A stretch of 64,000 nt of DNA from Alphaproteobacteria bacterium (GCA_965215305.1 OZ244041.1:1257689-1321688); one strand, 5' to 3'. Counted from the first letter of the stretch, positions 3,254 through 64,000 are shown. Notes: generated by a model not told the origin, from the letters alone. Numbers and translations are program-made.

Positions 3254-4516
3254 TTACTCCGCTGCGTCCGCAGCCTTGCGGCGGCTGTCCTGGCCGGCGA
3301 CCCGGACCGAGGCCTTCACCACCGGCACATCGGCTTCGGCGAGCGGTTGCATATATTGCTTGCGGGCGAGCGCGGCCTCTATGAAGGGCGCGAGTTCCGC
3401 GGCCTTGGCGGCTTCGCGCGCCTCCGCGTCGCGGGCGAATTCCGGCATGACCGTCTCCGCGAAGAGTTTCAGCGAGTTGCAGATATTCGCGTGGCTGTTG
3501 CGGCCGGCCTGCTGGAGAAAGATCACCTGGTCCACGCCCGCCGCCTGCATGTCGGCGAGGTGGCGCGCCATGTCGTCCGGCGTGCCGATGCCGGCGCCGT
3601 CATATTCCGCACGGGCGAGCGCCGCCTGGATCAGCAGGTCGGTCGCGGCGCCCCGTTTGGCGGTGAACTCGCCCCAGATGTCGGAATAGCCGGGCGTGAA
3701 GTCCTCGGCCACGAGCTTCTGCTGCGCATAGCGGAAGAACTCGAAATGGTCCTGGCCGCGCCGGATCGCCTCCGCCCGGTCCTCATGCATGGAGAAGGCC
3801 GAGACCATGGCGAGATTGGCGTTGACCGACCAGCCGAGCGGCACACAGTCCTCGCTGCGGATCGTGTCGTAATAGATGCCGGACCAGGTGCGCGCCTCTT
3901 CGGGATCGAGGAAGGAGAAGGCGAGCGCGCCGATCCCGTTCTGCGCGGCGACGCGGATCGTGTCGCGGTTGGTGCAGGCCATCCAGAGCGGTGGATGCGG
4001 CTCTTGCAGCGGCTTCGGCAGCACATTGCGGCAGGGCATGGAGAAGCCCTCGCCCTCGAAGCCGGGATAGGGCGTGAGCACCATCATGTTGCAGATCTGC
4101 TCCGCCGCCTCCAGTGCGAGCGCGCGCTTGCGCCGGGCGGAAATGCCGAAGGCGCCCAGCTCCAGCCGCGTCGCGCCTTCCCCTATGCCGAATTCGACCC
4201 GTCCATCCGAAATGAGGTCGAGCGTGGCAAGGCCCTCGGCCGTGCGCGCCGGATGGTTGTAAGCGGGAATGACCTGGCGGATGCCGTGGCCGAGCCGGAT
4301 GCGCTTCGTGCGGGCCGCGGCCGCGGCGAGGAAGACTTCCGGCGCGGAGGCATGGCTGTATTCGTCGAGAAAATGATGCTCGACCTCCCACGCATAGTCG
4401 AAACCCAACCTGTCGGCGAGCTCCACCTGATCGAGTGCCTCCTTCATCAGCCGGTATTCGGCGCCCTCGGTCCAGGGCCGCGGCAATTGCAGTTCGTAAA
4501 ACACCCCGAAACGCAT
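3254..4516 (-). CDS. LLM-class (luciferase-like) flavin-dependent oxidoreductase
   Basis: MRFGVFYELQLPRPW start is the typical LLM N-terminus. The start is chosen at the internal ATG preceded by GGAGG; the ORF extends to 4537 with a TTG. Confidence 0.75.
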   Translation of the reverse strand: MRFGVFYELQLPRPWTEGAEYRLMKEALDQVELADRLGFDYAWEVEHHFLDEYSHASAPEVFLAAAAARTKRIRLGHGIRQVIPAYNHPARTAEGLATLDLISDGRVEFGIGEGATRLELGAFGISARRKRALALEAAEQICNMMVLTPYPGFEGEGFSMPCRNVLPKPLQEPHPPLWMACTNRDTIRVAAQNGIGALAFSFLDPEEARTWSGIYYDTIRSEDCVPLGWSVNANLAMVSAFSMHEDRAEAIRRGQDHFEFFRYAQQKLVAEDFTPGYSDIWGEFTAKRGAATDLLIQAALARAEYDGAGIGTPDDMARHLADMQAAGVDQVIFLQQAGRNSHANICNSLKLFAETVMPEFARDAEAREAAKAAELAPFIEAALARKQYMQPLAEADVPVVKASVRVAGQDSRRKAADAAE

Positions 4517-4668: not shown

Positions 4669-6366
4669 TCACGCGTGCTGCTTCGCCTCGAACGCGGCGA
4701 CTTCGCTCATGAACGGGGCGGCGATGTCGGCATTGATCTTGCAGTCGAGGAAGACCGGGCCTTCGGGCGCCGCCAGCAGAGAGCCGAGCGCGCTCATGTC
4801 TTCAGGCGTGCGCACCGTATGGGCGTCGAAACCGAACGCCTCGGCGACGGGCGCGAAATCGACATCGGGGAAGACCGACTTGGCGACCGGGAGCTGGCGC
4901 AGCCGCAGATGATGCAGCTCCGCGCCATAGGCGCAGTCGTTCATCAGCACGATGACCAGCGGCAGGTCCTCCCGCACGACGGTTTCCAGCTCGCCCATGG
5001 TCATCAGGAAGCCGCCGTCGCCTACCACGAACACGGTCGGAATATGCGGCCGCGCCCGGGCGACGCCGAGCGCCGCGCCGAAGCCGAGTCCGATGGAGGC
5101 GAAATCGTTGGTCATCTTGAAATGCCCGGGATCGGGGACGGACAGATAGGGCACGACGCCGAGGAAATTGCCCGCGTCGCAAACGACATTGCGAGCGTCC
5201 GGCAGCATGCGGTCGAGCATGGCGGCGAGCATGCGTGGATCGATCGTGCGCGCCGTATTGGCCGGCTGGAAATCCTCCGCGATGGAGAAGGCATCGAGGG
5301 CGGCCATGTTTTCCGCGCCGTGATGCGGCCTGTCGGCGGCCGGCTTGTCCGCCGCCGCCTCGAGAAGCTGCTCGGCCGCCAGTTTCGCATCGCCCACCAC
5401 GGCGACATCGGCCGTGGTCCAGCGGCCGATACTGGCCCGCGAGGCGTCGATCTGGATCAGCGGCGCATCCGGCAGGGAGTCGCCGAAGCTCATGGTCAGG
5501 ATGTTGAGTCCCGCGCCGACCGCGAGCACGCAATCCGCCTCGGCCGCCATGCGCCGGGCCAGGGAATGCGAAAACGAGCCGATGATGCCGAGATTGAAGG
5601 GGTGGCCCCGGAACATGTCCTTGCCCCTGGCGGTCGTGGACAGCAGCGCGCCGGTCCTTTCCGCAAGCCGGACCAGCGCCTCGCCTGCGCCTGCCTTCCA
5701 GGCGCCGTGGCCGGCCAGGATCAGCGGCCGCCTCGCCCGGTCCAGCAGGGACGCCGCTGCCCGGATGGCATGCGCGCGCGCCGGCGCGGCCGGCCGCGCC
5801 GGAACCGGGCCGGCGTCCAGCGGCTCCGGCGCTGCTTCGCCAGGATCGACCGCAATCTCCGCATGCTGCACATCGACCGGCAGGAGAAGCGCGACGGCCT
5901 GGCCGGTCCGCGCGAGCGCGGCTGCATCCGCAAGCGTGGCGCGTGCCGCTGCGGCCCCGGTGGGCGCAAACACGCGCAGGCCGGCCGCCTTGAGCACGCC
6001 GGCGCCGTCCAGTCCCTTGTAGTCGGGTCCGAGCGCGTTTGCCGGCCCTGCCGGCAGCGCCGCCTCGCCATAGATGATGAGAACGGGATTGCCGGCGCGG
6101 GCGGCGAAGGCTGCAGCCTGCAGTCCGTTGGCGAGCGCCGGCCCCCGCCCGACGCAGGCCACGCCCAGGCGCCCTGTTGCGGCCGCATAGCCGTCGGCCA
6201 TGCCGATGGCGACATTCTCGTGCCTGGCGCCGATGAACGCGATTCCCATCGCATCCAGAGTCACGGCGAATGCCGCCGTGTCGTCGCTCATCAGCCCGAA
6301 CACCGTGTCGATGCCCATCGCCCCGATATCCTCGGCCAACGCCTGATAGACCGGAATGGTTCGCAT
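4669..6366 (-). CDS. thiamine-diphosphate-dependent enzyme (acetolactate synthase large subunit / benzoylformate decarboxylase-like)
   Basis: 565 aa from MRTIPVYQALAEDIGAMGIDTVFGL. ThDP-binding GDGG...N motif near the C-terminus. GGAG RBS before the chosen ATG. Confidence 0.8.
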   Translation of the reverse strand: MRTIPVYQALAEDIGAMGIDTVFGLMSDDTAAFAVTLDAMGIAFIGARHENVAIGMADGYAAATGRLGVACVGRGPALANGLQAAAFAARAGNPVLIIYGEAALPAGPANALGPDYKGLDGAGVLKAAGLRVFAPTGAAAARATLADAAALARTGQAVALLLPVDVQHAEIAVDPGEAAPEPLDAGPVPARPAAPARAHAIRAAASLLDRARRPLILAGHGAWKAGAGEALVRLAERTGALLSTTARGKDMFRGHPFNLGIIGSFSHSLARRMAAEADCVLAVGAGLNILTMSFGDSLPDAPLIQIDASRASIGRWTTADVAVVGDAKLAAEQLLEAAADKPAADRPHHGAENMAALDAFSIAEDFQPANTARTIDPRMLAAMLDRMLPDARNVVCDAGNFLGVVPYLSVPDPGHFKMTNDFASIGLGFGAALGVARARPHIPTVFVVGDGGFLMTMGELETVVREDLPLVIVLMNDCAYGAELHHLRLRQLPVAKSVFPDVDFAPVAEAFGFDAHTVRTPEDMSALGSLLAAPEGPVFLDCKINADIAAPFMSEVAAFEAKQHA

Positions 6367-6536: not shown

Positions 6537-7811
6537 ATGTTCATGAAAACGTTCGGGAAAATGACGACCGGCAAGTGGTTCGTAAGGTCGCTTGCGGCGC
6601 TTGCGATGTCGGCCTCGATGGCCTTCGCATCGCCTGCCCAGGCGAATGACACCATCAAGATCGGATTCAGCATGGCGCTGACCGGCGGCCTCGCCGGCGC
6701 CGGCAAGGGCGCGCTCATCGCCATGCAGGTCTGGGCGGAGGACATCAACGCCGCCGGCGGCCTGCTCGGCAAGCAGGTCGAGCTCGTCTATTACGACGAC
6801 CAGACCAACCCGGCCACCGTGCCGGCCATCTACACCAAGCTGCTGGATGTGGACAAGGTGGACTTCGTGGTCTCGGGCTACGGCACGAATCTCATCGCCC
6901 CGGCAATGCCGATCGTGATGCAGCGCGGCCTGGTGTTCCCGGCGCTGTTCGGTCTCGCGGTCAACGAAAAGTTCAACTACTCCAACTATTTCCAGATCAT
7001 GCCGGCGGGCCCGAAGCCGATGACGGACTGGTCGCGCGGTTTCTTCGAACTCGCCATGGAGCAGGATCCGCCGCCCAAGACCATCGCGCTTGTGGGCGCG
7101 GATGCGGAATTCGCCCGCAATGCGGTGATCGGCGCCCGGGTCAATGCGGAGGAATACGGGCTCGAAATCGTCTATGACGAGTCCTATCCGCCCCGGACGG
7201 CGGACTACACGCCCATCGTCAACGCCATCCAGGCCCGCAACCCGGATGTCGTGTTCGTCGCCTCCTATCCGCCGGACTCCGTCGGCATGGTGAAGGCCGC
7301 CACCGAGGTCGGCCTCAAGGCGAGAATGTTCGGCGGCGGCATGGTCGGGCTCCAGTTCGCCTCGATCATGACCGCGCTCGGGCCGAAGCTGAACGGCATT
7401 GTCAATTACGACTTCTGGGTGCCGGAGCCGACGCTCAAATTCGAGGGTGTCGAGGCGTTCCTCGAGAAATACCAGGCGGCGGCGGTCGGCAAGGGCGTCG
7501 ATCCGCTCGGCTACTATCTCCAGCCCTACGCCTATGCCTATCTCCAGGTGCTGGGGCAGGCGATTACCGCTACGGGCGGCATGGACCACGCTGCGATCGG
7601 CGACTACATCCGCAGCAACGAGTTCAACACGGTGGTCGGCAAGGTGAGCTTCGCGCCGAACGGCGAATGGGCGAAGACCCGCGTGCTGATGGTCCAGTAC
7701 CAGGGCGTCGACGACAGCGAACTCGCGACCTTCACGAAGGAGGGGACGCGCGTCGTGCTCTACCCGAAGGAATGGAAATCGGGTGACATCAACGTCCCCT
7801 ATGCCGAGTAG
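6537..7811 (+). CDS. ABC transporter substrate-binding protein, branched-chain amino acid (LivK/Leu-Ile-Val-binding) family
   Basis: Signal peptide (MFMKTFGKMTTGKWFVRSLAALAMSASMAFASPAQA) followed by a type I periplasmic binding fold. AGGGAGG RBS. Confidence 0.8.
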   Translation: MFMKTFGKMTTGKWFVRSLAALAMSASMAFASPAQANDTIKIGFSMALTGGLAGAGKGALIAMQVWAEDINAAGGLLGKQVELVYYDDQTNPATVPAIYTKLLDVDKVDFVVSGYGTNLIAPAMPIVMQRGLVFPALFGLAVNEKFNYSNYFQIMPAGPKPMTDWSRGFFELAMEQDPPPKTIALVGADAEFARNAVIGARVNAEEYGLEIVYDESYPPRTADYTPIVNAIQARNPDVVFVASYPPDSVGMVKAATEVGLKARMFGGGMVGLQFASIMTALGPKLNGIVNYDFWVPEPTLKFEGVEAFLEKYQAAAVGKGVDPLGYYLQPYAYAYLQVLGQAITATGGMDHAAIGDYIRSNEFNTVVGKVSFAPNGEWAKTRVLMVQYQGVDDSELATFTKEGTRVVLYPKEWKSGDINVPYAE

Positions 7812-7911
7812 GCCCGCGGTCCGGCGGCAGCTTGCCATATTCCGACAACGAGCCCCTGTCCTGCATGTCGCGGGATAGGGGCTTGCGCCCGACCAGGGAC
7901 GGAGCCTGCCG

Positions 7912-8784
7912 GTGTTTTCGCTAGAGCTCCTTCTGAACGCGCTTGTCGCCGGGATGCTTCTCGGCGGGTTCTACGCCGCGGTGAGCCTCGGCCTGACCGT
8001 GTCGTTCGGGCAGCTCAACATCGTGAATATCGCCCATCCGGCCTTCGTCATACTGGGCTCCTACATCGCCTATATGTGCAACAGCGAGTGGGGGCTCGAC
8101 CCGATTCTGGTGGGGCTCGTATTCGCGCCGGTGTTCTTCCTTATCGGGATCGGCGTCTACCGCATCTATTACGAGAGTTTCGAACGCAAGGACGATGAGG
8201 CGCTGCGCGGCCTCGCCTTCTTCTTCGGCGTCATGTTCGTCATCGAGGTCGGCCTCATCATGGCCTACGGGGTCGATTTCCGCTCCGTGCAGGCCTCCTA
8301 TATCGGGCAGAACTGGAAGATCGGCCCGGTGGGCGTGCCCACGCGCATGCTGGTGCCGTTCGTCGTCTCGCTCCTCATGTTCGGCGGGGTCTATCTCTAC
8401 ATGTCGCGTACCTTCAACGGCCGCGCGATCATGGCCGTCGCGCAGGACCGCCTCGCCTTGCAGCTCATGGCGGCGGACCCGGTGAAGATCAAGCAGCTCG
8501 GTTTCGGCATCGGGATCGGGACGACGGCGATTGCAGGCGCCCTGCTCATCATCATCATTCCCATCGAGCCGTCCGTCGGGCGGCTCTATATCGGCCAGGT
8601 GTTCGCCATTGCCGTTCTGGCCGGGCTCGGCTCGATTCCCGGCACGCTCGTGGCGGCGCTTGTTCTCGGGGTGGCGGAGAGCCTGGTCTCGACCCTTTAC
8701 GGCCCGTCATGGGCGCCCGCCGTCGCTTTCGGAATCCTGCTCCTCGCCCTTGCCTTCCGGCCGCAGGGCCTGTTCGGACGGTAG
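7912..8784 (+). CDS. livH: branched-chain amino acid ABC transporter permease (LivH-type)
   Basis: 290 aa polytopic membrane protein, LivH family by sequence, in livHMGF order. Confidence 0.85.
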   Translation: MFSLELLLNALVAGMLLGGFYAAVSLGLTVSFGQLNIVNIAHPAFVILGSYIAYMCNSEWGLDPILVGLVFAPVFFLIGIGVYRIYYESFERKDDEALRGLAFFFGVMFVIEVGLIMAYGVDFRSVQASYIGQNWKIGPVGVPTRMLVPFVVSLLMFGGVYLYMSRTFNGRAIMAVAQDRLALQLMAADPVKIKQLGFGIGIGTTAIAGALLIIIIPIEPSVGRLYIGQVFAIAVLAGLGSIPGTLVAALVLGVAESLVSTLYGPSWAPAVAFGILLLALAFRPQGLFGR

Positions 8785-8801
8785 CAAGGAGCACGCCCGC
8801 C

Positions 8802-9758
8802 ATGAAACTAACCTCGTTCTGGCTCTGGGCCGCCGTCATTGCGCTTCTCGGCGCCGCGCTGACGATCTTCGATCTCGTGCCCGTCAACGCCTTCGTCTAT
8901 TTCGCGGGCTATGTGGTGCTGCAATATGTGGTGCTCGCGACGGCCTGGAACATCATGGGCGGCTTTATGGGCTATGTGAATTTCGGCACGGCCGGATTCT
9001 TCGCCATGGGCGCCTATACCTCCGTGGTGCTCTACAACCTCTTCAAGGCGCCGCTGCTGGTGATGATCCCGGTATCGGGACTTGTCTGTGCGCTTCTCGG
9101 GCTCGCCATGGGCTATCTCACGCTGCGGCTGCGCGGCGTCTTCTTCGCCATCGCGACGCTGGCGCTCGCCATCGTGCTCGAAACCCTCGTCATCAACTGG
9201 GACTATGTGGGCGGCGCGACCGGGGCCTATATCCTGCGGGCGCGGGAGATCGCCCCGTTCGGCGACTATATCGAGTTCCTGTTCTTCGTGATGCTGCTGC
9301 TCGCGATCTTCGCCGTCGGGACCGCCCGCTGGATCGAGCGCTCGAAGGCCGGGCGCGGCTTTGCGGCCATTCGCGACGACGAGGAGGCGGCCGAATGCGC
9401 GGGCGTGCCGACGCTGCGGCTCAAGCTCATGGCGACCACGGTATCCGGCTTCCTCATGGGCGTCGCCGGGGCGCCCTTCGTGCTCTATGTCGGGTTCATC
9501 GAGCCGTCATCGGCGTTCAATCTCGTCTATGCCGTCAATTCCATTGCAATGCCGATGATCGGCGGGGCGACCACATGGCTCGGGCCTCTCATCGGCGCGC
9601 TGCTGCTCGGCACGGTGCAGCAGGTTGCGACGGTGACGATCTCCTCGGAACTCAACCTGCTTATCGTCGGGGCGCTGCTCATCTTCTTCGTCATCGCGGC
9701 GCCGGAGGGCATTGTCGGGCTGGTCAGGAAATGGCGGAGGGCCGGCAATGACCGATGA
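8802..9758 (+). CDS. livM: branched-chain amino acid ABC transporter permease (LivM-type)
   Basis: MKLTSFWLWAAVIALLGAALTIF start. Membrane permease following livH. Confidence 0.8.
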   Translation: MKLTSFWLWAAVIALLGAALTIFDLVPVNAFVYFAGYVVLQYVVLATAWNIMGGFMGYVNFGTAGFFAMGAYTSVVLYNLFKAPLLVMIPVSGLVCALLGLAMGYLTLRLRGVFFAIATLALAIVLETLVINWDYVGGATGAYILRAREIAPFGDYIEFLFFVMLLLAIFAVGTARWIERSKAGRGFAAIRDDEEAAECAGVPTLRLKLMATTVSGFLMGVAGAPFVLYVGFIEPSSAFNLVYAVNSIAMPMIGGATTWLGPLIGALLLGTVQQVATVTISSELNLLIVGALLIFFVIAAPEGIVGLVRKWRRAGNDR

Positions 9759-10485
9759 AGGCGGGGCGCGCGGCGTGCTGCTCGAGGCGCGGGCGGTCAC
9801 CAAACGGTTCGGCGGCTTCACCGCGCTCGACGGGGTGAGCCTCGATGTGCGCGCCGGCGAGCGGTTCGGGATGATCGGCCCGAACGGCTCGGGCAAGACG
9901 ACCATGATCAACTGCATCTCAGGCACGCTCTCGAACGAAGGCGGCGAGATCCGCTTCAAGGGCGAGGCGCTGGACGGCCGCAAGCCGCATGAGCGCACGC
10001 GGCTCGGCATCGCCCGGTCGTTCCAGATTCCGAAGCCGTTCCGGTCGATGACGGTGCTGGAGAACCTCGTCATCCCGCTCGAATACGCCACGGACATCGC
10101 GCCCGCGGAGATCGCCGGACGCGGCATGGCGATTCTGGAAACCATCGGCCTCGCGGATCGCGCCGGCGAAAACTCCGGGAAACTGACCCAGATCGACATG
10201 CGCAAGCTGGAGCTCGCGCGGGCGATGGCGACAGAACCCCAACTGCTGATTTCGGATGAGGCGATGGCGGGCCTGTCCTCCGCCGAGGTGGATGACATAC
10301 TGGACATCCTGTTCCGCCTGAACGAGGACGGCATCACCATCATCATGATCGAGCACATCATGCGCGCCGTGATGCGCTTCTCGGAACGGATCGTCGTGCT
10401 CGACGCCGGCCGCAAGATCGCGGAGGGCGGGCCGGACGAGATCATCAACGATCCCGAGGTCGAGAGGGCCTATCTCGGTGAGTAG
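9748..10485 (+). CDS. livG: ABC transporter ATP-binding protein (LivG-type)
   Basis: Walker A GPNGSGKTT, signature and Walker B present. Overlaps livM by 11 nt. Confidence 0.85.
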   Translation: MTDEGGARGVLLEARAVTKRFGGFTALDGVSLDVRAGERFGMIGPNGSGKTTMINCISGTLSNEGGEIRFKGEALDGRKPHERTRLGIARSFQIPKPFRSMTVLENLVIPLEYATDIAPAEIAGRGMAILETIGLADRAGENSGKLTQIDMRKLELARAMATEPQLLISDEAMAGLSSAEVDDILDILFRLNEDGITIIMIEHIMRAVMRFSERIVVLDAGRKIAEGGPDEIINDPEVERAYLGE

Positions 10486-11209
10486 GATCACCGTCAGCGA
10501 TGTGGAAGCAGGCTACGGGTCGGTGCGCGTGCTGCATGGCGTGTCGATCTCGGTGGAGCCGGGCGAGACGGTCGCCCTGCTCGGCACCAATGGCAACGGC
10601 AAGTCCACGCTGATCCATTGCATCATGGGCATCGTCCGGCCTACTGCCGGCTCCATCCTGCTGGAAACCGACGATGGCGCGCGGATCGAGCTTATCGGCA
10701 AGACGCCCCAGGAGGTTGTGGAACTCGGCATTTCCCTCGTCCCGGAAGGACGGCGCCTGTTTCCGCGCCTGACGGTGGAAGAAAACCTGATGCTTGGCGC
10801 TTACCGGGAGTCGGCGCGGCGGCAGATCGACGCCAATCTGGCGTTCTGCTTCGAGGCGTTTCCGGTTCTCGCCGAACGCCGGAGGCAGCTCGCGGGCTCC
10901 ATGTCCGGAGGTGAGCAGCAAATGCTTGCGATTGCCCGCGCGCTCATGTCCGAGCCGCGCATCCTGCTGGTGGACGAACCGTCGGTCGGTCTTGCGCCGA
11001 TACTCGTCAGCCGGATGATCGCAAAGATCAGGGAGTTGAAGGAGCAGCGGAACCTGACCGTGTTGATGGCCGAGCAGAATTTCAACCAGGCGATCAAGAT
11101 CGCCGACCGCGGCTACATCATCGTGCATGGCGACATCGCCTTCGCGGCCTCATCGGCCGCGGCGCTCGCGGAAAACGAGATGGTCAAGCAATACTATCTC
11201 GGCGCATGA
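10478..11209 (+). CDS. livF: ABC transporter ATP-binding protein (LivF-type)
   Basis: Walker A GTNGNGKST and signature SGGEQQML. Overlaps livG by 8 nt. Confidence 0.85.
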   Translation: MSRITVSDVEAGYGSVRVLHGVSISVEPGETVALLGTNGNGKSTLIHCIMGIVRPTAGSILLETDDGARIELIGKTPQEVVELGISLVPEGRRLFPRLTVEENLMLGAYRESARRQIDANLAFCFEAFPVLAERRRQLAGSMSGGEQQMLAIARALMSEPRILLVDEPSVGLAPILVSRMIAKIRELKEQRNLTVLMAEQNFNQAIKIADRGYIIVHGDIAFAASSAAALAENEMVKQYYLGA

Positions 11210-11246: not shown

Positions 11247-12341
11247 TTGAAACTCGGCTTCTTCACCATGCCGATCCACCGGCTGGACCGGAATTACACC
11301 GAGGTGCTGCAGGAGGACCGCGAGGCCGTCATCCTCGCCGACCGGCTCGGCTATTCGGAGGCCTATGTCGGCGAGCATGTCACCGATGCGGCCGAGAGCA
11401 TCACCAATGCGATGCTGTTCCAGGCGAGCCTGATTTCCGACACGAAGCAGATCCGGCTCGGCACCGGCACCGCCAATCTCTCGCACACCCATCCCGTGCT
11501 CATCGCGGCCCAGGCGGCCATGCTGGACCACCTGCTGAAAGGCCGGTTCCTGTTGGGCATCAGCCCCGGCGCGCTCGAATCCGACGCCGAGGCGCTCGGC
11601 ATACGCAGCCTCGACCGGGGCGAGATGTTCCTGGAATCCATCGGCCATATCCTGGACATATGGCAGGGCGAGCCGCCCTACGACCTCAAGGGCAAACACT
11701 GGAAGATCACCACCCGCGAGACGCTCTTCCCGGAGATCGGGGTCGGCCCGATCGCGAAGCCCTACCAGAAGCCGCACCCGCCCGTCCTCGCCACGGTGGT
11801 CTCTCCGCATTCGAAGAGCGCGGTCGAGATCGGCCGGAGGGGCTTCTTCCCGATCTCGGCGAATTTCCTCCAGCCGAATTGGGTCCCCACCCATTGGGCG
11901 AAATACAGGCAGGGATGCGCGGAGGCGGGACGCGCTGCGGACCGCGGCAACTGGCGGATCGCGCGGTCGATCTTCGTCCATGACGACCACCGGACCGCGC
12001 TCGACTACGGCAAGGAGAATGCGCGGAGCCCCTATCGCTTCTATTTCCGCCAGCTCTTCACCAAGCTGAAGAAGGCGAACCGCCACGCCGCCTTCAAGCC
12101 TGATCCGGCGTTCCCGGACGAGGAGCTCACCCTCGACTATGTGGTCGAGAGCCTCGTCATTGCAGGCGACCCGGCAAGCGTCGTGGACCAGCTGCTCGCC
12201 TTCCGCGAGGTGACCGGCGATTTCGGCACGCTGCTCTATGCCGGCAAGGACTGGGAGGACAAGGCGCTCGGCACACGCTCGATGGAGCTGATGGCGGAGA
12301 AGGTCATGCCGGCGCTCAACGCGGCCATCGGCGCCGGGTGA
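11247..12341 (+). CDS. LLM-class flavin-dependent oxidoreductase
   Basis: LKLGFFTMPIH N-terminus typical of the LLM family. TTG start preceded by GGAG; the ATG alternative is 21 nt further in. Confidence 0.7.
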   Translation: MKLGFFTMPIHRLDRNYTEVLQEDREAVILADRLGYSEAYVGEHVTDAAESITNAMLFQASLISDTKQIRLGTGTANLSHTHPVLIAAQAAMLDHLLKGRFLLGISPGALESDAEALGIRSLDRGEMFLESIGHILDIWQGEPPYDLKGKHWKITTRETLFPEIGVGPIAKPYQKPHPPVLATVVSPHSKSAVEIGRRGFFPISANFLQPNWVPTHWAKYRQGCAEAGRAADRGNWRIARSIFVHDDHRTALDYGKENARSPYRFYFRQLFTKLKKANRHAAFKPDPAFPDEELTLDYVVESLVIAGDPASVVDQLLAFREVTGDFGTLLYAGKDWEDKALGTRSMELMAEKVMPALNAAIGAG

Positions 12342-12457
12342 GCCGTCGGCGCCGGACGCTCCTCGTTCGTTGACAGCCCGGCGGGGCCTGCCTATCGTCG
12401 GAACCGGCCTCCGGCAACGGACCGGGCCGGCGGCGCGCATTGTGGGGGTCTGTCCCG

Positions 12458-21034: not shown

Positions 21035-21111
21035 CGGGGCGTAGCGCAGCCTGGCAGCGCGTCTGCTTTGGGAGCAGAAGGTCGCGAGTTCGAATCTCGC
21101 CGCCCCGACCA
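21035..21111 (+). tRNA. tRNA-Pro (anticodon TGG)
   Basis: Cloverleaf: acceptor CGGGGCG/CGCCCCG, anticodon stem CTGCT/AGCAG with loop TTTGGGA, T-arm GGTCGCGAGTTCGAATCTCGC, discriminator A, encoded CCA. Confidence 0.9.
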
Positions 21112-57416: not shown

Positions 57417-58914
57417 CCCGGCTCTTGTCGAGGTTGGCGAAGCGGGTGTACCGGCCCTCGAATTGGAGCTCGATCCTGCCCGTCGGCCCGTGGCGCTGCT
57501 TGGCGATAATGACATCGGCGAGATTGTGGACCCCTTCCATCTTGTCCTGCCAGTCCCGGTGCTCGTCGGTGCCCTCCGGCGGCTCCTTGCGGGCGAGATA
57601 GTATTCCTCCCGGTAAATGAACATCACCACGTCGGCATCCTGCTCGATAGACCCGGATTCGCGCAGGTCCGCAAGCTGCGGGCGCTTGTCCTCGCGCTGC
57701 TCCACGGCGCGCGAAAGCTGGGAAACGGCCAGGATCGGCAGGTCCAGTTCCTTGGCCACGGTCTTGAGGCCGCGGGTGATTTCCGAGACCTCCTGCACGC
57801 GGTTTTCCGGCCGGCGCCCGGCGCTCGGCTGCATGAGCTGGATATAGTCCACCACGATAAGGTCGAGCCGCCCGTGGCTGCGCAGCAGGCGCCGGGCGCG
57901 GGTGCGAAGCTGCGAAACGGTGATCGCCGGCGTGTCGTCGATGAAGAGCTTCAGGTTTTCGAGCGTCTGGCTCGCCTGGAATACCGAGTCGAACTCGGCC
58001 TGGCTGATACGCCCGCGCCGGATCTCATCCGAGGAAACCTGCGCCTGCTCGGCCAGGATGCGCAGCGCCAATTGCTCGGCCGACATTTCCAGGGAGAAGA
58101 CGGCCACCGCATAGCCGTCGATCTCGTGGACCTCGTCGTCCTCGCCGCGTTCCCGCACACGCGCCCGCGCGGCGTTGAAGGCGATATTGGTGGCCAACGC
58201 GGTCTTGCCCATGCCCGGCCGCCCGGCCAGCACCAGGAAGTCGGAGCGCTGGAGGCCGCCGAGCTTCGCGTTGAGATCGTTGAAACCGGTTGTCACGCCG
58301 GTCAGGCTGCCTTCCCGGCGGAAGGCGCTTTCGGCCATGTCGATGGCGGCGGCGAGCGTCCCGGAAAAGGGCCGGAAGCCCGTCTGCCCGGCCCCGGTCG
58401 TAGCGAGCTCGAACAGCCGGTGTTCGGCCTTTTCGATGCGGCCCGCGGCGGTGAGTTCGATATCACTGTCATAGGCTTCGTTCACCACCTCGCCGCCGAT
58501 GGAGATGAGCGCGCGGCGTAAATGCAGGTCGTGGATCGCCTGCCCGAAGGAGACGGCGTCGATAACGCCGATAGCGCTGGCTGCGAGCTCGGCCAGATAG
58601 CGCGGGCCGCCCACATCGGCGAGCCGGTCCTGCTGCTGGAAATAGTCCCTGAGGGTCGCCGGGCTGGCCTGGCCGCCGCGCTCGGTCACGCGCCGGATGG
58701 CGTCGTAGATGCGTCGGTGGCTTGGGTCGAAGAAATGGTCCGCCTCCAGGAAGTCGGCGACCTGCTCCAGGATGCGGTTGTCCACCAGGACCGCACCGAG
58801 CAGCGCCATCTCGATCTCGAGATTGGCGGGGAGCTGGCGATAGGCGAGGTCGTCGTCTGGCGGGGCCTCGAAGGGCGGCTCCTCCAGGAGCCAGGGATCG
58901 GCTTGTGCTGTCAT
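57397..58914 (-). CDS. dnaB: replicative DNA helicase DnaB
   Basis: 505 aa. Walker A GRPGMGKTA. DnaB N- and C-domains. Confidence 0.95.
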   Translation of the reverse strand: MTAQADPWLLEEPPFEAPPDDDLAYRQLPANLEIEMALLGAVLVDNRILEQVADFLEADHFFDPSHRRIYDAIRRVTERGGQASPATLRDYFQQQDRLADVGGPRYLAELAASAIGVIDAVSFGQAIHDLHLRRALISIGGEVVNEAYDSDIELTAAGRIEKAEHRLFELATTGAGQTGFRPFSGTLAAAIDMAESAFRREGSLTGVTTGFNDLNAKLGGLQRSDFLVLAGRPGMGKTALATNIAFNAARARVRERGEDDEVHEIDGYAVAVFSLEMSAEQLALRILAEQAQVSSDEIRRGRISQAEFDSVFQASQTLENLKLFIDDTPAITVSQLRTRARRLLRSHGRLDLIVVDYIQLMQPSAGRRPENRVQEVSEITRGLKTVAKELDLPILAVSQLSRAVEQREDKRPQLADLRESGSIEQDADVVMFIYREEYYLARKEPPEGTDEHRDWQDKMEGVHNLADVIIAKQRHGPTGRIELQFEGRYTRFANLDKSRDGEAPV

Positions 58915-58987
58915 GAGAGGGTCATTAGACCGGGGCGCGATTATCGTGTCTCTAGGGATAACTTGGAAAGAAGGGATAACCGCCGCT

Positions 58988-59725
58988 ATGCACCGCCTCA
59001 TCTCGCTCGAAGGCGCAACGAATGTCCGCGACCTCGGCGGCTACGAGGCCGTTGACGGCCGCCGGGTCCGCTGGCGTCGGCTGTTCCGGGCCGACGGGCT
59101 GCACCGGCTGACCTCCGGCGACGGCGAGGCGCTGGCGGCGCTCGGCCTCGGGGAGGCGCTGGACCTGCGCTACGGGCCGGAGCGCGCGGGCGAGCCCGCC
59201 TGCTTGCCCGAGGGAATCTCGAGCGTGCATATCGGCCTCGCCGAGGCGCCGGGCGCGTCGCTGCTGGAGACGCTGAACCTGGGCGGCGTGACCTCGTCGC
59301 AGGCCGCGATGGCGTGGCTGACGGCAAGCTATGCGGGATACCCGGACGTCTATGCGCCCGCCTGCGGGGCGATCCTCCGCCGGTTGATTGCCACCGGCGC
59401 GCCGCCGCTGCTCTTCCACTGCATCGCCGGCAAGGACCGCACGGGCTTCGCCGCCGCCATCGTGCTGGAGGCGCTGGGCGTGTCCCGCGAGACGATCATG
59501 GAGGACTATCTGCTCACCAACCGCCACTGGGACCGCGGCGACCGCGAACCCGAAGGCCTGCCGCGCGAAATCTACGAACCGGTGTTCTCCGCGAGGGAGG
59601 ACTATCTGGCCGCTTCATGGGCAACACTGGACCGGGACCATGGCGGGCTGGAGGCATGGCTCGACAGAGCGGTGGATTTCGGCGCAGCGGAGCGGGAGCA
59701 GCTCAGGGCGGGGTTGCTGGAGTAG
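58988..59725 (+). CDS. protein-tyrosine phosphatase (Y_phosphatase3-like)
   Basis: P-loop HCIAGKDRTG (CX5R). Confidence 0.75.
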   Translation: MHRLISLEGATNVRDLGGYEAVDGRRVRWRRLFRADGLHRLTSGDGEALAALGLGEALDLRYGPERAGEPACLPEGISSVHIGLAEAPGASLLETLNLGGVTSSQAAMAWLTASYAGYPDVYAPACGAILRRLIATGAPPLLFHCIAGKDRTGFAAAIVLEALGVSRETIMEDYLLTNRHWDRGDREPEGLPREIYEPVFSAREDYLAASWATLDRDHGGLEAWLDRAVDFGAAEREQLRAGLLE

Positions 59726-59745
59726 AGAAGGTCGACAAAATTACG

Positions 59746-60633
59746 TCAAACCACCTCAAAGCCATTAACTCCCCGCCTCAGAACATCGACTCGGAGTTTG
59801 TGGCGCAACACGCCCAAGTGTTTATGCCAAGCCTCTTCGCGTCTTGGTTTGCCATCATCGAAGATAATTAATCTAAGCCTGTCGTCAATACCGAGCGGGC
59901 TGCTTGGCTCTGCAGCCGCAAGAATCAGAGGGTCAAGATGAGGCAGTGCTGTTAATCTGGAAGCCATTATATGGAAGTTCCTGATAATCCCACAAGTCTG
60001 CCTGTAAGCTTCAACAATCCTCTGTCGCCGCTCTCGGCTGTCGAGATATACTCGATATCTATCTATTTGACCGAGAACTTTCGGCTGCTGAATACTTGAG
60101 CGCAATCGACTATCTGAAATCATCTTTGCTTCCGAAAATGCAAGTCGAAGATCATCCGCATTTCCCTCTAAAGAAACAATATCTATGCGCAAAGAATTTT
60201 TCCCACCATCGTAAGCAGGCAAACCCATCTCTAGGTCAATTATAGTCGGTGTTTCGTCAATCAACGTATCGATATTTCGTTTTTCTTCATTGGTGTAGTT
60301 TGATGACCTGTTGATCCAAGCATCAAGCGTTTGCAGATCGTTATATTTCATTTTGTTATCACCGGTAGAATTTCCTTCCATGTCAAATGTAATGTATCCC
60401 TTTTCATCTCTAGGTGAATCGATCACGTATTTCTTGTGAATACGAAGAGCCAGTTTTCGATCTCTCCGATTATAAGTAATCTTTGCAATGGATTGGCCCT
60501 TTACATAGAAACTCATATAACCATTGCGGATCGCAATCCGCAGCATACCAGTACTACCGCTTGGTGCCCAATTCGCAAGTAGATCTGGCAGCCAACCTGT
60601 TTTTTCTGAAACTAGTTTACCGGCGACCTTCAT
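59746..60633 (-). CDS. hypothetical protein, low-GC orphan (about 295 aa)
   Basis: A long open frame in a very AT-rich stretch is unlikely by chance. No recognisable motif. Confidence 0.45.
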   Translation of the reverse strand: MKVAGKLVSEKTGWLPDLLANWAPSGSTGMLRIAIRNGYMSFYVKGQSIAKITYNRRDRKLALRIHKKYVIDSPRDEKGYITFDMEGNSTGDNKMKYNDLQTLDAWINRSSNYTNEEKRNIDTLIDETPTIIDLEMGLPAYDGGKNSLRIDIVSLEGNADDLRLAFSEAKMISDSRLRSSIQQPKVLGQIDRYRVYLDSRERRQRIVEAYRQTCGIIRNFHIMASRLTALPHLDPLILAAAEPSSPLGIDDRLRLIIFDDGKPRREEAWHKHLGVLRHKLRVDVLRRGVNGFEVV

Positions 60634-60705
60634 TGCTTCGTCTGATAGTGCTCTGCCAAATGGACACACGAGAGCTGCCTTTCTTTAGAAGGTGAGCAGG
60701 AGATT

Positions 60706-61770
60706 TTAAACCTCCCACCATTCGCCGTCCACCCTCGGGACGACATTGTCGAAGAATTCCGGGTAGCGGCCGGTCTCGAAGGAATGTATCGGCACCAGCG
60801 CGCGAGGGGCAAGGGCGGCGGCGAAGCGTTGCAGGTCGGCGGCCGAGGCGTGGCCGGAGGTATGGAGGACCTGCCATTCGATGCCGTGTCGGTCGAGCCA
60901 GTCCAGCACCGGGCGGGAGGAGTCCTCCTTCAGATAGCCCTGCCACATCGAGTAGCTGAAGCGCGCGCCCTCCAGCGCCGAGCGGACGCCACTGTCGGGC
61001 CTCGCCGTCGGGCGGAACAGCATGACGGCGCGCGCGGCGAGGCCGGGCAGGTCTTCCGGATAGACGCGGTTCCTGCTGTGCCGTTTGAGGTCCTTGAACA
61101 GCCCGTGTTCCTTGATGAATACCCGCTGGCGCTGCGGAATGTAGACCTTCACCTCCGGCCAGTGCGACTGCGGAACGCGGTCGCGCCCGGTCGCTTCCAG
61201 AACCACCGCCGTATAGAGGTCGATCAGCAGCACCCGGCCCGACTGCTTGGCCGCGCGGAAGATCGTGACGATCCGGTCGATGTTCTGCGAGGAGGTCCAG
61301 ACGAAGTGCATGCCCTCCGTCTGCCGAAAGGCCTCGATGAACCGTTCTTCGAGATCCGTCTCGGTCTCGAAGCCCTCCGCCGTTCCCGTTCGCCCGAGCG
61401 TCGTGCCCTCCATCAACAGCGCGTCGATATCCCCGGGCGGGTTGCGGACCAGCCGTTCGAACAGCGGCCTCTTGCGGCCGTGGGCGCGGAAGTCGCCGGA
61501 ATAGAAGACCCGCCTGCCATCCGCCTCGACCATGAGCGCATAGGCATCGAAGGCGCTGTGGTCGACCAGCCAGGGCATGATGCGAAACGGCCCGATCTCG
61601 AACGGCCGCCGGTCGACGAGGAAATGCGGGGCGGCGAAGGCAAAGCCCTTCGGAATCCAGGGACGGGCAGCTTTCAGGATGTTGTGCGCGGCCTCGCCGA
61701 TCCAAACCGGCACCTCCGGGCGGATATGTGCGGCGAGGCCGTAATGGTCCATATGGCCGTGCGAGATCAT
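60706..61770 (-). CDS. MBL-fold metallo-hydrolase (beta-CASP-like), N-terminus possibly truncated
   Basis: HGHMDHYG (HxHxDH) occurs only about 28 residues from the first possible start. C-terminal SGHA-type motif. Confidence 0.65.
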   Translation of the reverse strand: MISHGHMDHYGLAAHIRPEVPVWIGEAAHNILKAARPWIPKGFAFAAPHFLVDRRPFEIGPFRIMPWLVDHSAFDAYALMVEADGRRVFYSGDFRAHGRKRPLFERLVRNPPGDIDALLMEGTTLGRTGTAEGFETETDLEERFIEAFRQTEGMHFVWTSSQNIDRIVTIFRAAKQSGRVLLIDLYTAVVLEATGRDRVPQSHWPEVKVYIPQRQRVFIKEHGLFKDLKRHSRNRVYPEDLPGLAARAVMLFRPTARPDSGVRSALEGARFSYSMWQGYLKEDSSRPVLDWLDRHGIEWQVLHTSGHASAADLQRFAAALAPRALVPIHSFETGRYPEFFDNVVPRVDGEWWEV

Positions 61771-61994
61771 GACGCCGAGCAGGCTGTCGTCGCGCTCCCG
61801 CAAGCCCGGACGGTCGTGCGCACCGCCCGGCCGTTCACGGTCCCGTGCCACACGAAACTGCGATGACCGGAAGGACGGACCCGCACGCCCAGCCCGGCAA
61901 CGCGAATGTCCCTGACGATATATTCCGTCCCGCCCGGCTTCATTCTTGCGACGCCTGCATCCGTCAGGCGGACCTTCCTCGCCCTGCCGGTCAT
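61767..61994 (-). pseudogene. integrase N-terminal arm-binding (DUF4102-type) domain fragment
   Basis: LTDAGVARMKPGGTEYIVRDIRVAGLGVRVRPSGHRSFVWHGTVNGRAVRTTV matches P4-type integrase arm domains. It runs into the MBL gene with no catalytic domain. Confidence 0.5.
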
Positions 61995-63118
61995 GACTGC
62001 GCCCCCGAGAGCAGGGGCGACAGGGCCTCGACCGTCTCCCGGACCGTCGCGTCGGAGAGATGCGCGTATTTCAGCGTGGTCGCCGCATTGTCATGGCCCA
62101 GCAACCGTCCCACCGTGCGGATCGTCTCGCCGCTCGACAGCGCTATGCTGGCGAAGCTGTGGCGCGTGTCATGAAGGCGCATGCCCTCCAGACCAGCCTC
62201 GGCGCGTATCTGTTTCCAGAAGGCATCCAGCCAGTTCCAGGGTGCCCTCAAGCCTCCGACGGGAAAGACGACTCGCGAGGACCGCGGCAGCCGGTCAAGA
62301 ACTTCCCGCGCTGCTCGGCACAGCCACACCGTGCGCGGTCCCGTCTTGCTGTCTTCGAGGAACAGGCGGCCGTCGCGGTAGAAGCGCCATTCCAGGGTGA
62401 CGATCTCCGATTTGCGGCAGCCGGTCAGCAATAGCAGGCGCAAGGCCGCGACCTGGAAGGGCTGCCGGGCCTCATGCCGGTCCAGAACCATGCCGAGGCG
62501 GCGATACTCCTCCGGGGACAGGAAGCGCTCGCGCCGCTTCTGCCGGTAGCGCCTGATGCCCTTGCAGGGATTGCCCCCTTCAGGGCGAAGGCCCCAAGCT
62601 TCGGCCTGCTGCATGATGACGGACAGGATCGGCGCCGAACGGTTCGCCGCCGCCGGCGTGGCATGGAGCGAGCGAAACCAGCGCTGCACTTCATCGCGGT
62701 CGATCTCCGCAATCGGCTTGCCCGCGAAACAGGGCAGGATATTGCCATGAAGATAGCTGCGGTTGACCGCGAGCGTGCGCGGCTTCCAGCGCCTGCCATA
62801 GCGCGTGAAGACTTCTTCGGCCACGGTCTCGAACAGGGCATTGCCGGACGCTTCCACTTCAATGTCCCTGTCGTCGCGCAGTGCGGCCAGCATGGACCGG
62901 GCGCAGGCGCGCGCCTCGGCCTCGGTCATGACCGCCGCGTCGCCGACGATCTTCCAGAACCGATGGCCCCGGTGCTGGCTGTGGATGAAATACCGCTTCG
63001 TGCCCGAGGGCGTGATGCGGACGCCGTATCCCTTCAGTTCGGCGTCCCGCACATTACGGACGGTCTTGCGGGGCCGGAGGGTATCGACCCGGCGTTGGGT
63101 GAGGCGAATGGCTGCCAT
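61991..63118 (-). CDS. tyrosine-type site-specific recombinase/integrase (P4-like, with own arm domain)
   Basis: 376 aa from MAAIRLTQRRVDTLRPRK. Catalytic R...HxxR...Y region (LHDTRHSFAS...LGHDNAATTLKYAHL). Confidence 0.9.
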   Translation of the reverse strand: MAAIRLTQRRVDTLRPRKTVRNVRDAELKGYGVRITPSGTKRYFIHSQHRGHRFWKIVGDAAVMTEAEARACARSMLAALRDDRDIEVEASGNALFETVAEEVFTRYGRRWKPRTLAVNRSYLHGNILPCFAGKPIAEIDRDEVQRWFRSLHATPAAANRSAPILSVIMQQAEAWGLRPEGGNPCKGIRRYRQKRRERFLSPEEYRRLGMVLDRHEARQPFQVAALRLLLLTGCRKSEIVTLEWRFYRDGRLFLEDSKTGPRTVWLCRAAREVLDRLPRSSRVVFPVGGLRAPWNWLDAFWKQIRAEAGLEGMRLHDTRHSFASIALSSGETIRTVGRLLGHDNAATTLKYAHLSDATVRETVEALSPLLSGAQS

Positions 63119-63669
63119 GATTGCGGTTCCCCGATCCTTTGCACTGGTGTGCAAAACCGGGTTCGGTCTCGCGCCCGGTTGCACCGGAAACGGGGAAAAT
63201 CCACAATCATATCAGACAGTTAGCACCGGAGGTGCGCGCCCCTGTGTATGCGCAGTCTCATGTCGGCGCTCCTTCGCTCGATACACTGTCTATTTCAGTT
63301 CGGAGGCCGAGAAGTTTACCGGATCGGGCACGGCGTTCTGCCTCCCCCTTCAGTCCAGCAGCGCTTCGCCCGGCCGGATGCGGATGAAGGCGACGGGTTC
63401 GGAGGCAGCCGCGAGCGCGCCGTCGGCAAGGCGCACTGCGGTGTAGCGCGTGGCGGCGAGGTTGCCCGTCTCCGGGAAGTCCTCGCGGGCGCAGGCTGTC
63501 GCGGTAGCAGCGCGCGAGACCGTCACCAGGCTGTCCAGGTTCAGCCGGTCGTGCCAGGCGAGGTTGCAGGCGGCGCTGCTGGAGTAGGGGCGGGCCGACA
63601 TCGGGCGCCAGGCGCTTGCCCCGGCCCCGCCTGCTCGGGGACGCCCGGCAGGGCGGGCTGCGGTGTCCG

Positions 63670-64000
63670 CTATTCGACGGTGATGGTAATCACCGCCGAC
63701 ATTACGGGCGGGGTGTGCGGGACATGATTGTGGTCGCCCAGCACCAGCTGCAGCGTGTGCGCGCCGGGCGCCAGTTCCACGCTGGCCTCGGTCTGGCCAC
63801 CGCCGAAATGCCGGTGGTTGTCGTCAGTCGTCACGCTGAAGAGCAGCTCTTCCTCACCGTCCTCGCCCTGGCCCATCGGCGGACGGTCGATCAGCAGGTG
63901 GTGGTGGCCAGTGCCTTCTTTTTCGATACCGGCCGGCGCCACGCCCATGCCCGACAGGCCGAAGACGACCTTCACCGGGCTCGACACGGCGTCGCCGTCG
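63670..64000 (-). CDS. DUF4399-like protein (GTGHHHL motif), 5' end beyond window
   Basis: SSPVKVVFGLSGMGVAPAG...GTGHHHLLID...HTLQLVLGDHNH. Start probably lies upstream of the window edge. Confidence 0.45.
   Translation of the reverse strand, partial: DGDAVSSPVKVVFGLSGMGVAPAGIEKEGTGHHHLLIDRPPMGQGEDGEEELLFSVTTDDNHRHFGGGQTEASVELAPGAHTLQLVLGDHNHVPHTPPVMSAVITITVE

Follow-up and report, generated by a model that had tools for sequence, protein, structure and literature searches.

Whether an integrase gene has delivered the genes that stand beside it is the question raised by one locus of a 64,000-nucleotide (nt) stretch of DNA from an Alphaproteobacteria bacterium (GCA_965215305.1 OZ244041.1:1257689-1321688), which is called the window below and is numbered from its first letter. 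Directly after a Y_phosphatase3 gene (58913-59725, plus strand), a conserved left flank recognized by Pfam and by blastn against a related locus, open reading frame (ORF) calling in the window gave four ORFs on the minus strand, in agreement with an earlier interpretation made from the DNA alone (the sequence-only reading). [quoted passage not shown] The sequence-only reading took the four for a single integrase-bounded islet. Our comparison with related loci indicates that the locus is probably a composite of two independent entities, a resident two-gene cassette formed by the MBL and partner genes, and the scar of an integrative element.

Three related loci (L001, L003 and L004) carry an MBL gene and a low-GC partner gene at the same chromosomal site, with no integrase. 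Their flanks are syntenic with the window and 81-99% identical to it; one flank holds DnaB, alanine racemase, MlaE and an ABC ATPase, and the opposite one a succinate-dehydrogenase-like operon. The gene order in all three is a 415-aa MBL gene, a gene of about 300 aa without a Pfam domain and the convergent phosphatase gene. In L003, the site holds an intact 415-aa beta-CASP MBL gene and then the partner, between DUF4399 and the tyrosine phosphatase. Three collinear blastn blocks join this locus to the window: 64000-63233 matches L003 4253-5020 at 99.7%, 61810-60707 matches 5135-6238 at 95.2%, and 59725-56001 matches 7235-10959 at 98.8%, with homology restarting exactly at the stop codon of the Y_phosphatase3 gene. 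For the MBL-partner half of the locus, gene order is thus conserved in relatives without any boundary, a finding that the sequence-only reading had itself named as contrary to an islet.

Because the MBL gene of L003 starts at position 4992, inside the 99.7% block, window positions 63261-63233 (minus strand) are the first 29 nt of the MBL gene (ATGAGACTGCGCATACACAGGGGCGCGCA, translated as MRLRIHRGA). The native MBL upstream region (63262-63349, minus strand) lies within the same block. After the 29-nt stub, the window has 1,422 bp (61811-63232) in place of 114 bp of MBL coding sequence, and the body of the disrupted gene then continues at 60706-61810 (minus strand; codons 48-415 and the stop) in a frame that is still open. 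The MBL ORF of the window lacks the first 47 codons of its 415-aa homologues, and its Lactamase_B_2 match begins at profile position 20, so that the 5' truncation suspected earlier is real and the lost start has been located, stranded beyond the integrase. Alignment to close relatives, the check proposed with the islet, delimited the insertion as 61811-63232 within the MBL gene. Since that gene is interrupted by integrase DNA, the MBL and partner genes are not cargo of the integrase.

The inserted DNA is the left part of an integrase operon. The IntA product has three Pfam domains, Arm-DNA-bind_3 (PF13356, 29.5 bits against a cut-off of 27), Phage_int_M (PF22022, 28.4 bits) and Phage_integrase (PF00589, 61.5 bits), and its translation shows the R...HxxR...H...Y catalytic residues. 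The sequence-only reading was right to call it an intact P4-type integrase with its own arm domain, and was one residue too long in giving 376 aa for a protein of 375. It was also right that this is not a housekeeping XerC or XerD: the NCBIfam models TIGR02224 and TIGR02225 gave 58.8 bits (cut-off 335) and 49.8 bits (cut-off 330), and the arm domain is present. IntA is 100% identical to the protein P0187, and more than 100 clusters, nearly all of 375 aa, are 72-90% identical to it; the integrase pair of which it is the first member is common in Alphaproteobacteria.

The 75-aa ORF, which like the partner ORF has no Pfam match, had been recognized as a fragment of an integrase arm domain, and it aligns with the IntA arm domain at 38% identity across 48 aa (E 2e-7). 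Integrase sequence makes up no more than its first 62 codons, which match the arm domain of a second integrase, IntB; in the 13 codons that end the ORF, MBL DNA is read in a wrong frame. DNA homology to full-length IntB genes of four related copies (L006-L009) extends over exactly 186 nt and ends at window position 61809, which bounds an IntB stub at 61809-61994 (minus strand). Comparison with these IntB genes and with L003 places the deletion junction at 61809-61811, where IntB codon 62 joins MBL codon 48 with a 2-nt microhomology (TC). The IntB start overlaps the IntA stop by 4 nt (ATGA) in the window and in 13/13 related copies, namely L006-L009, L090 and L091-L098, the last eight being contexts of one identical protein, P0213. 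The copies with this overlap include one, 39% identical, on the megaplasmid of Shewanella oneidensis MR-1, where IntB has 456 aa; in the close relatives its length is 386-400 aa. This conserved overlapping pair means that the 75-aa ORF is the deletion stub of an operon partner and not the trace of a second integration, so the successive integrations that had been read from the tandem genes are not borne out; the decay that had been suggested beside them is evident in the shortened IntB and the split MBL gene. IntB is also broken in three of the eight copies with identical IntA (L091, L095 and L098), by an insertion sequence (IS), an IS21 insertion and a frameshift, and the truncated IntB of the window fits the same pattern. 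These elements may commonly become fixed by losing IntB.

The anatomy and the junctions very probably record an insertion followed by a deletion. Sharing the orientation of the MBL gene, the element would have inserted at about its codon 10. An illegitimate deletion at the 2-nt microhomology would later have removed IntB from codon 62, the rest of the element and MBL codons 10-47. What would be left is the partner gene intact, the MBL gene split and probably inactive, a stub of IntB, and IntA alone and immobile, stranded without its IntB partner or a second attachment (att) site. The sequence-only reading had looked to direct repeats to bound the islet; a search of 59.4-64.0 kb for att repeats gave chance-level direct matches alone, and of the two element junctions one survives. 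The MBL gene of the window is probably inactive, because the first three strands of the fold are lost and its ratio of nonsynonymous to synonymous substitution rates (dN/dS) against L003 is 0.44, where intact copies give 0.24 among themselves. Expression of the partner may persist by read-through from the native MBL upstream region, since all genes from the MBL promoter to the partner are co-oriented; a weak promoter-like site, by consensus match only, lies at 60731-60703.

The low GC content that had suggested a foreign islet belongs to the partner gene. The drop after the phosphatase gene is real and is confined to this gene (41-48% across it, 44% overall), with the MBL and integrase genes at 66% and the whole window at 67.7%. 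In 78 loci, the partner slot has a GC content on average 7.1 points below the MBL gene and 8.0 points below the flanks, and more than 10 points lower in 27 of the 78, while the MBL gene itself tracks its host (-0.8 points). The low GC of the supposed orphan is therefore the normal state of the slot. The gene is present as described, and is longer than reported: it encodes 307 aa from a GTG start, the earlier 295 aa having been counted from an internal ATG, and the GTG is also where the alignment of homologues begins, F4 and R6 being nearly invariant. Nor is it an orphan. A word-indexed search returned 66 homologues, and an exhaustive profile search places the gene in a family of at least 1,628 clusters (clusters at 50% identity, E <= 1e-3).

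Between close relatives the partner allele has been exchanged. The L003 partner is 26% identical to that of the window (hhalign probability 99.8%), there is no DNA homology to L003 across window 59726-60706, and the differences between the two MBL genes, which are 95% identical, are clustered. Such low partner identity amid flanks of about 99%, together with the clustering, points to replacement of the allele, and the partner was probably swapped by homologous recombination anchored in the MBL and phosphatase genes.

In an alignment of 59 sequences of the partner family, 24 residues are invariant, including E129, K130, D145, E147, R161, D163, E180, K182, Q201 and Y205. An AlphaFold2 model of the window's partner (mean predicted local distance difference test, pLDDT, 93.6) places D163 on strand 160-168 and E180-x-K182 on strand 174-183, with helices 128-139 and 197-209 on either side. 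In this model, D163 and E180-x-K182 fall on the second and third strands of an alpha-beta-beta-beta-alpha unit, which is the topology of PD-(D/E)xK nucleases, and the partner is accordingly described as PD-(D/E)xK-like by motif and predicted topology. In the Foldseek list for this domain, PD-(D/E)xK nucleases predominate, and it is headed by Card1, FokI, BsmI, Mus81, HamA, MspJI, BamHI and Shedu, all non-significant. Searches of the partner against PADLOC, NCBIfam and Pfam gave no hit, and a sequence-profile search against the PDB gave an immunoglobulin A protease match alone, which was rejected as spurious.

The other member of the cassette is, judging from its motifs, a beta-CASP metallo-beta-lactamase nuclease; the sequence-only reading had called it beta-CASP-like. 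It scores 42 bits with PF12706 (Lactamase_B_2) and 22.5 bits with PF07521 (RMMBL; cut-off 21.6), and the motifs SHxHxDH, DHS, GDF, E182 and HTSGHAS are invariant in the family alignment. The best matches of a sequence search against the PDB are RNase J proteins (1e-13 to 1e-14).

The pairing of the two genes was examined in 85 MBL loci, one of which was fetched twice. The partner family of the window is present in 37 of these by hidden Markov model search, directly downstream of the MBL gene in 33 of the 37, and ten further loci join by profile comparison with 90-97% probability. Most other loci have a different gene of about 300 aa in the same slot. One such family, that of L024, is a significant match to Pfam PDDEXK_4 (E 8.6e-9), and the remaining families show a D...ExK pattern by eye only; profile comparison detected no relationship of the L013, L010 and L077 types to the family of the window. 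That all partners are PD-(D/E)xK proteins was thus considered and set aside, since this has been shown for two families only, the window's own, through its motif and topology, and the PDDEXK_4 family.

In isolate genomes, the partner and MBL proteins also occur naturally fused, as a 742-aa protein of Shewanella fidelis (WP_245603060.1, P0428) and S. pneumatophori (WP_248948996.1). The partner domain takes up residues 3-298 and the MBL domain, which has the same architecture and is 31% identical to P0067, residues 320-742, which is the reverse of the usual gene order. Around the cassette, neighbours are heterogeneous (88 Pfam families among 113 sampled proteins), and no recurrent third gene was found among the 113. 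Some neighbours are defence genes (MkoA, IetA, MADS and type II methylases). No cognate methyltransferase was found in the window or in L001-L005, and one or two of the 113 neighbours match type II methylase models; the cassette copy on plasmid pRphaN671a of Rhizobium phaseoli (AMC80_RS21360/21355) adjoins a separate methylase/GIY-YIG cluster.

Some loci have extra small genes, which are not conserved across loci. In L001, a DUF1902/HicB-like gene of 86 aa (5908-6168) overlaps the MBL start by 4 nt, and a 109-aa ORF (7420-7749) lies between the MBL and partner genes; in the pRphaN671a locus (L099), a 158-aa gene (5516-5992) overlaps the MBL start. The metagenome-assembled genome OZ220712.1 (Thermodesulfobacteriota) holds two MBL copies, L022 and L038. 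In L022 the MBL gene is followed by the partner family of the window, and in L038, as in L005, by a 223-aa D...EAK protein, which adjoins an Xre-RES toxin-antitoxin pair.

For the intact cassette we tentatively propose a restriction-like 'cut and chew' defence pair, a function drawn by analogy that we regard as plausible without holding it to be probable. The variable partner would recognize and cleave foreign nucleic acid, leaving 5'-phosphate ends, and the conserved beta-CASP enzyme would degrade from these ends. RNase J and SNM1A act in this way, as 5'-phosphate-dependent 5'->3' exonucleases. A toxin-antitoxin or addiction module, in which one protein, the partner or conversely the MBL protein, is toxic and the other neutralises it, would likewise be a two-gene, horizontally mobile and patchily distributed unit, and toxin-antitoxin genes do occur among some neighbours, such as the Xre-RES genes in L005. 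That reading is disfavoured because, in the window, a disrupted MBL gene stands beside an intact partner: the partner keeps 24/24 invariant residues and an open frame, which is hard to reconcile with the MBL protein as antitoxin. The MBL protein also retains a full set of catalytic motifs and is far more conserved than typical antitoxins, and the natural partner-MBL fusion speaks against this reading as well. An addiction module is therefore unlikely.

The element that entered the cassette can be described from its related copies. The integrase pair sits at the left end of the elements, with a TrwC relaxase of 1,806 aa located 3-4 kb downstream in L092-L095, and intact elements are, from their predicted genes, candidate integrative mobilizable or conjugative elements. 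Identical IntA occurs in eight different contexts (L091-L098) with unrelated, non-tRNA left flanks, and target choice of the two-integrase elements looks loose. The copies with P0213 share the left end CTACSGGATTCACACATCTGTGCGCA|CCTACGGTGCTAAC..., about 138 nt before the ATG. In the window, upstream alignments with 12 related copies define a leader of 114 nt (63119-63232, minus strand), and the element copy starts at an inner CCTCCGG motif 114 nt before the ATG, a copy, inside the element, of the CCTACSG motif with which intact elements end. Within the leader lies the inverted repeat TTGCAC-TGGT-GTGCAA (63139-63154) that the sequence-only reading had reported; it stands 21-36 nt upstream of the IntA ATG, an offset greater by one than the 20-35 nt first given. 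The leader including this repeat is conserved across related copies, and the repeat is probably a regulatory or recombinase-binding site. Two metagenome scans with the conserved leader motif found no further left ends.

The unusual start of the window copy could also mean that the element targets the 5' end of the MBL gene site-specifically and that the window shows a canonical attL. Integrases specific for dusA do target the 5' end of that gene. The junction falls exactly at the 5' edge of the internal CCTCCGG copy, and the adjoining MBL sequence, which replaces the missing terminus, matches it in register at 14 of 27 positions (shuffle p 0.002), as well as only 0.27% of the window's 27-mers do. 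These matches hint that a recombinase assisted the event, at a pseudo-site. However, the MBL gene was rejected as a dedicated att site, this integrase lying inside or beside it in 0/80 other MBL loci; moreover, 12 other element copies lie at unrelated sites, and the window copy lacks the outer 24-27 nt found in 11/11 copies with a readable left end. A canonical attL at this position is quite unlikely.

The absence of a tRNA, which had been presented as an anomaly for a P4-type integrase, is what would be expected, since this integrase family sits at many non-tRNA sites and no tRNA/att pair need be present. Scans agree that there is no tRNA in 63119-63349 or at the left boundary. The sole tRNA of the window is a tRNA-Pro at 21035, 38 kb distant; tRNA scans of L003, L006-L009 and the window region found none near the locus, an Rfam scan gave no hit, and no tRNA or transfer-messenger RNA (tmRNA) target was found in the window or in 12 related copies. 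In L008 (about 12320-12400) and L009 (about 4360-4440), an inverted tRNA T-arm-like pair, GGTCGCAGGTTCAAATC ... GATTTGAACCTGCGACC, lies directly after the IntB stop, where ARAGORN called no tRNA. L006-L009 share no conserved tail after IntB, and in the window everything after IntB codon 62 is deleted. The element adjoins a type I HsdR gene and a type I-E-like cas cluster in L006, and an MmeI-type enzyme, an AAA_13 ATPase and cas9-cas1-cas2 in L008 and L009; these defence genes may be cargo or neighbours.

The similarity of the MBL protein to RNase J allows a further explanation, that it is a housekeeping RNA-processing enzyme of the lineage and the downstream gene an unrelated neighbour. Its RMMBL motif and its conserved position beside dnaB in L001, L003 and L004 would fit such a role. 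Against it, the protein scores far below the RNase J equivalog models (TIGR00649, 41.7 bits against a cut-off of 400; NF047419, 33.2 against 820), and it is widely distributed. With one genome scanned per species, 80 loci were recovered, with identities of 46-81%, in Alpha- and Gammaproteobacteria, Binatia, Thermodesulfobacteriota, Chloroflexota, Acidobacteriota, Gemmatimonadota, Latescibacterota, Actinomycetota, Verrucomicrobiota and Bacteroidota, and that identity stays near 70% between members of more than 10 phyla points to horizontal transfer. One genome has two copies (L022 and L038), the gene is dispensable here, being split, and pairing with a partner of about 300 aa is kept across phyla and extends to a fusion. 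The housekeeping explanation is very unlikely.

Weakest of all is the single integrase-bounded island with the MBL gene and orphan as cargo, successive integrations at a hot-spot and an att site or tRNA just outside the view, which the adjacent, co-oriented genes, the strongly low-GC orphan and the integrase at one edge had recommended and which is scarcely credible beside integrase-free MBL and partner genes at the same site in L003 (flanks 99% identical), L004 and L001, an MBL reading frame interrupted by integrase DNA, an integrase pair that is a conserved operon, low GC as a property of the partner slot across 78 loci and no tRNA in the window region and five relatives scanned.

Several observations weigh against our preferred account, that of a resident nuclease cassette split by an element. 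With respect to the history of the locus, the left junction is off the canonical end of the element, the outer 24-27 nt being missing; the truncated MBL frame is still open and its dN/dS only mildly raised, so that the gene may conceivably retain some function or have been disrupted very recently; and the relatives are metagenome-assembled contigs, yet three independent assemblies agree. With respect to function, the best Foldseek match of the partner has an E of 0.17 and none is significant (whole protein and domain, PDB and BFVD), 0 of 59 members of the window's partner family match Pfam, and the link to PDDEXK_9 comes through the L003 homologue (E 8e-4, below the Pfam cut-off). As for the profile search that the sequence-only reading had suggested, PADLOC-DB v2 has no hit at E <= 0.1 for the partner or the MBL protein, nor for the integrase and its stub. 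In addition, the cassette lies here among housekeeping genes, with no obvious defence island.

Taken jointly, it is possible, and to us somewhat doubtful, that the pair is an undescribed methylase-free two-nuclease immune system, spread horizontally in more than 10 phyla, with the partner as exchangeable specificity module and the MBL protein as degrading engine, and that the two-integrase/TrwC element is an undescribed family of integrative elements whose target choice is loose. Neither the MBL-partner pair nor the two-integrase module was found described in searches of the literature. Seen as an island, the locus is an ordinary, decayed mobile-element scar, and its lesson is that genes of low GC content need not have arrived with the integrase beside them. 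Together, the MBL gene and its partner form a widespread unannotated two-gene module (1,628 partner clusters) whose partner slot behaves like a swappable specificity cassette, and which is a testable candidate for a new system of defence or nucleic-acid targeting, named cassette genes being available in cultured strains.

Upstream of the split MBL gene, an 83-aa ORF (63350-63601, minus strand) is the 3' remnant of a succinate-dehydrogenase/fumarate-reductase-like flavoprotein gene, and DUF4399 (63670-64000+) forms the flank beyond it. In L001 the flavoprotein gene is intact (570 aa), and the remnant has 79% nucleotide identity to its 3' end. In L003 and L004, the remnant is found downstream of a (SodC)+DUF4399 block that has an intact flavoprotein gene on its upstream side, and a duplicated gene end of about 250 bp thus brackets the block. 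This resembles the outcome of an older element's insertion into the flavoprotein gene at its 3' end, with a replacement end supplied by the element.

Among described systems, the integrase pair is closest to the multi-integrase elements, which comprise GInts (ginABCD, with three recombinase-fold genes and one for a small helix-loop-helix protein), strand-biased circularizing elements (intA-tfp-intB-srap), Tn554 (tnpABC) and RIT trios (PMC5385486, PMC10214605). It shares with them a translationally coupled tyrosine recombinase operon at the left end with cargo downstream, and insertion at non-tRNA sites, sometimes the 5' end of a gene (PMC5385486, PMC10214605). Unlike these elements, it has exactly two recombinases, both with the PF13356 arm domain, and its cargo includes a TrwC relaxase; in L006-L009 and L090 there is no dead recombinase of the GinC/Tfp kind and no small GinD/Srap-like protein after IntB. 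Assignment to the GInts was rejected, since the relatives have two integrases only and the ORFs after IntB carry neither a recombinase domain nor a small accessory gene, and assignment to the strand-biased circularizing elements was rejected, since the integrase genes are adjacent with a 4-nt overlap and no tfp between them. Alphaproteobacteria are among the hosts found here; in that group, the study of strand-biased elements found no such elements and no GInts. With P4-type (DUF4102) integrases, IntA shares the Arm-DNA-bind_3, SAM-like middle and catalytic domains. In contrast to P4-type tRNA-linked islands, neither the window nor the 12 copies have a tRNA or tmRNA as target, the integrase is one of a pair, and identical IntA in eight contexts suggests loose target choice. 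The coupled pair of arm-type integrases fits no described multi-integrase class, which matters for the annotation of environmental mobile elements.

The two proteins of the cassette each recall known nucleases. With RNase J, CPSF73 and SNM1, the MBL protein shares the HxHxDH motif, the beta-CASP insert and the RMMBL motif; it differs from RNase J in its 415 aa, in the lack of the RNase J C-terminal domain, in scores far below the family cut-offs, in its mobility and in its nuclease-like partner. Like Type II and Type IV PD-(D/E)xK restriction endonucleases, the partner is hypervariable, low in GC, horizontally exchanged and built on a D...ExK core, and its weak structural neighbours among restriction enzymes are FokI, BsmI, MspJI, BamHI and SwaI, none of them significant. 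In contrast to those endonucleases, it has no linked methyltransferase and is always paired with an MBL nuclease.

As a pair, the cassette is best compared with the MBL pro-nuclease modules, in which MBL-fold nucleases encoded just upstream of variable partners serve as defence effectors (PMC12799240; 10.1101/2025.09.03.673762). These include the trypsin-MBL modules of Hachiman, AVAST and Lamassu and the caspase-nuclease Canu (PMC12799240; 10.1101/2025.09.03.673762). Their MBL is described as similar to the ComEC-like enzymes of DNA uptake and is protease-gated, whereas the MBL here is of the beta-CASP, RNase J-like kind, with no protease or helicase. The two arrangements share an MBL gene immediately upstream of a variable partner and a spread through unrelated contexts, and in Hachiman the protease-fused HamA is itself of PD-(D/E)xK type, as the partner described here is PD-(D/E)xK-like (PMC12799240; 10.1101/2025.09.03.673762).

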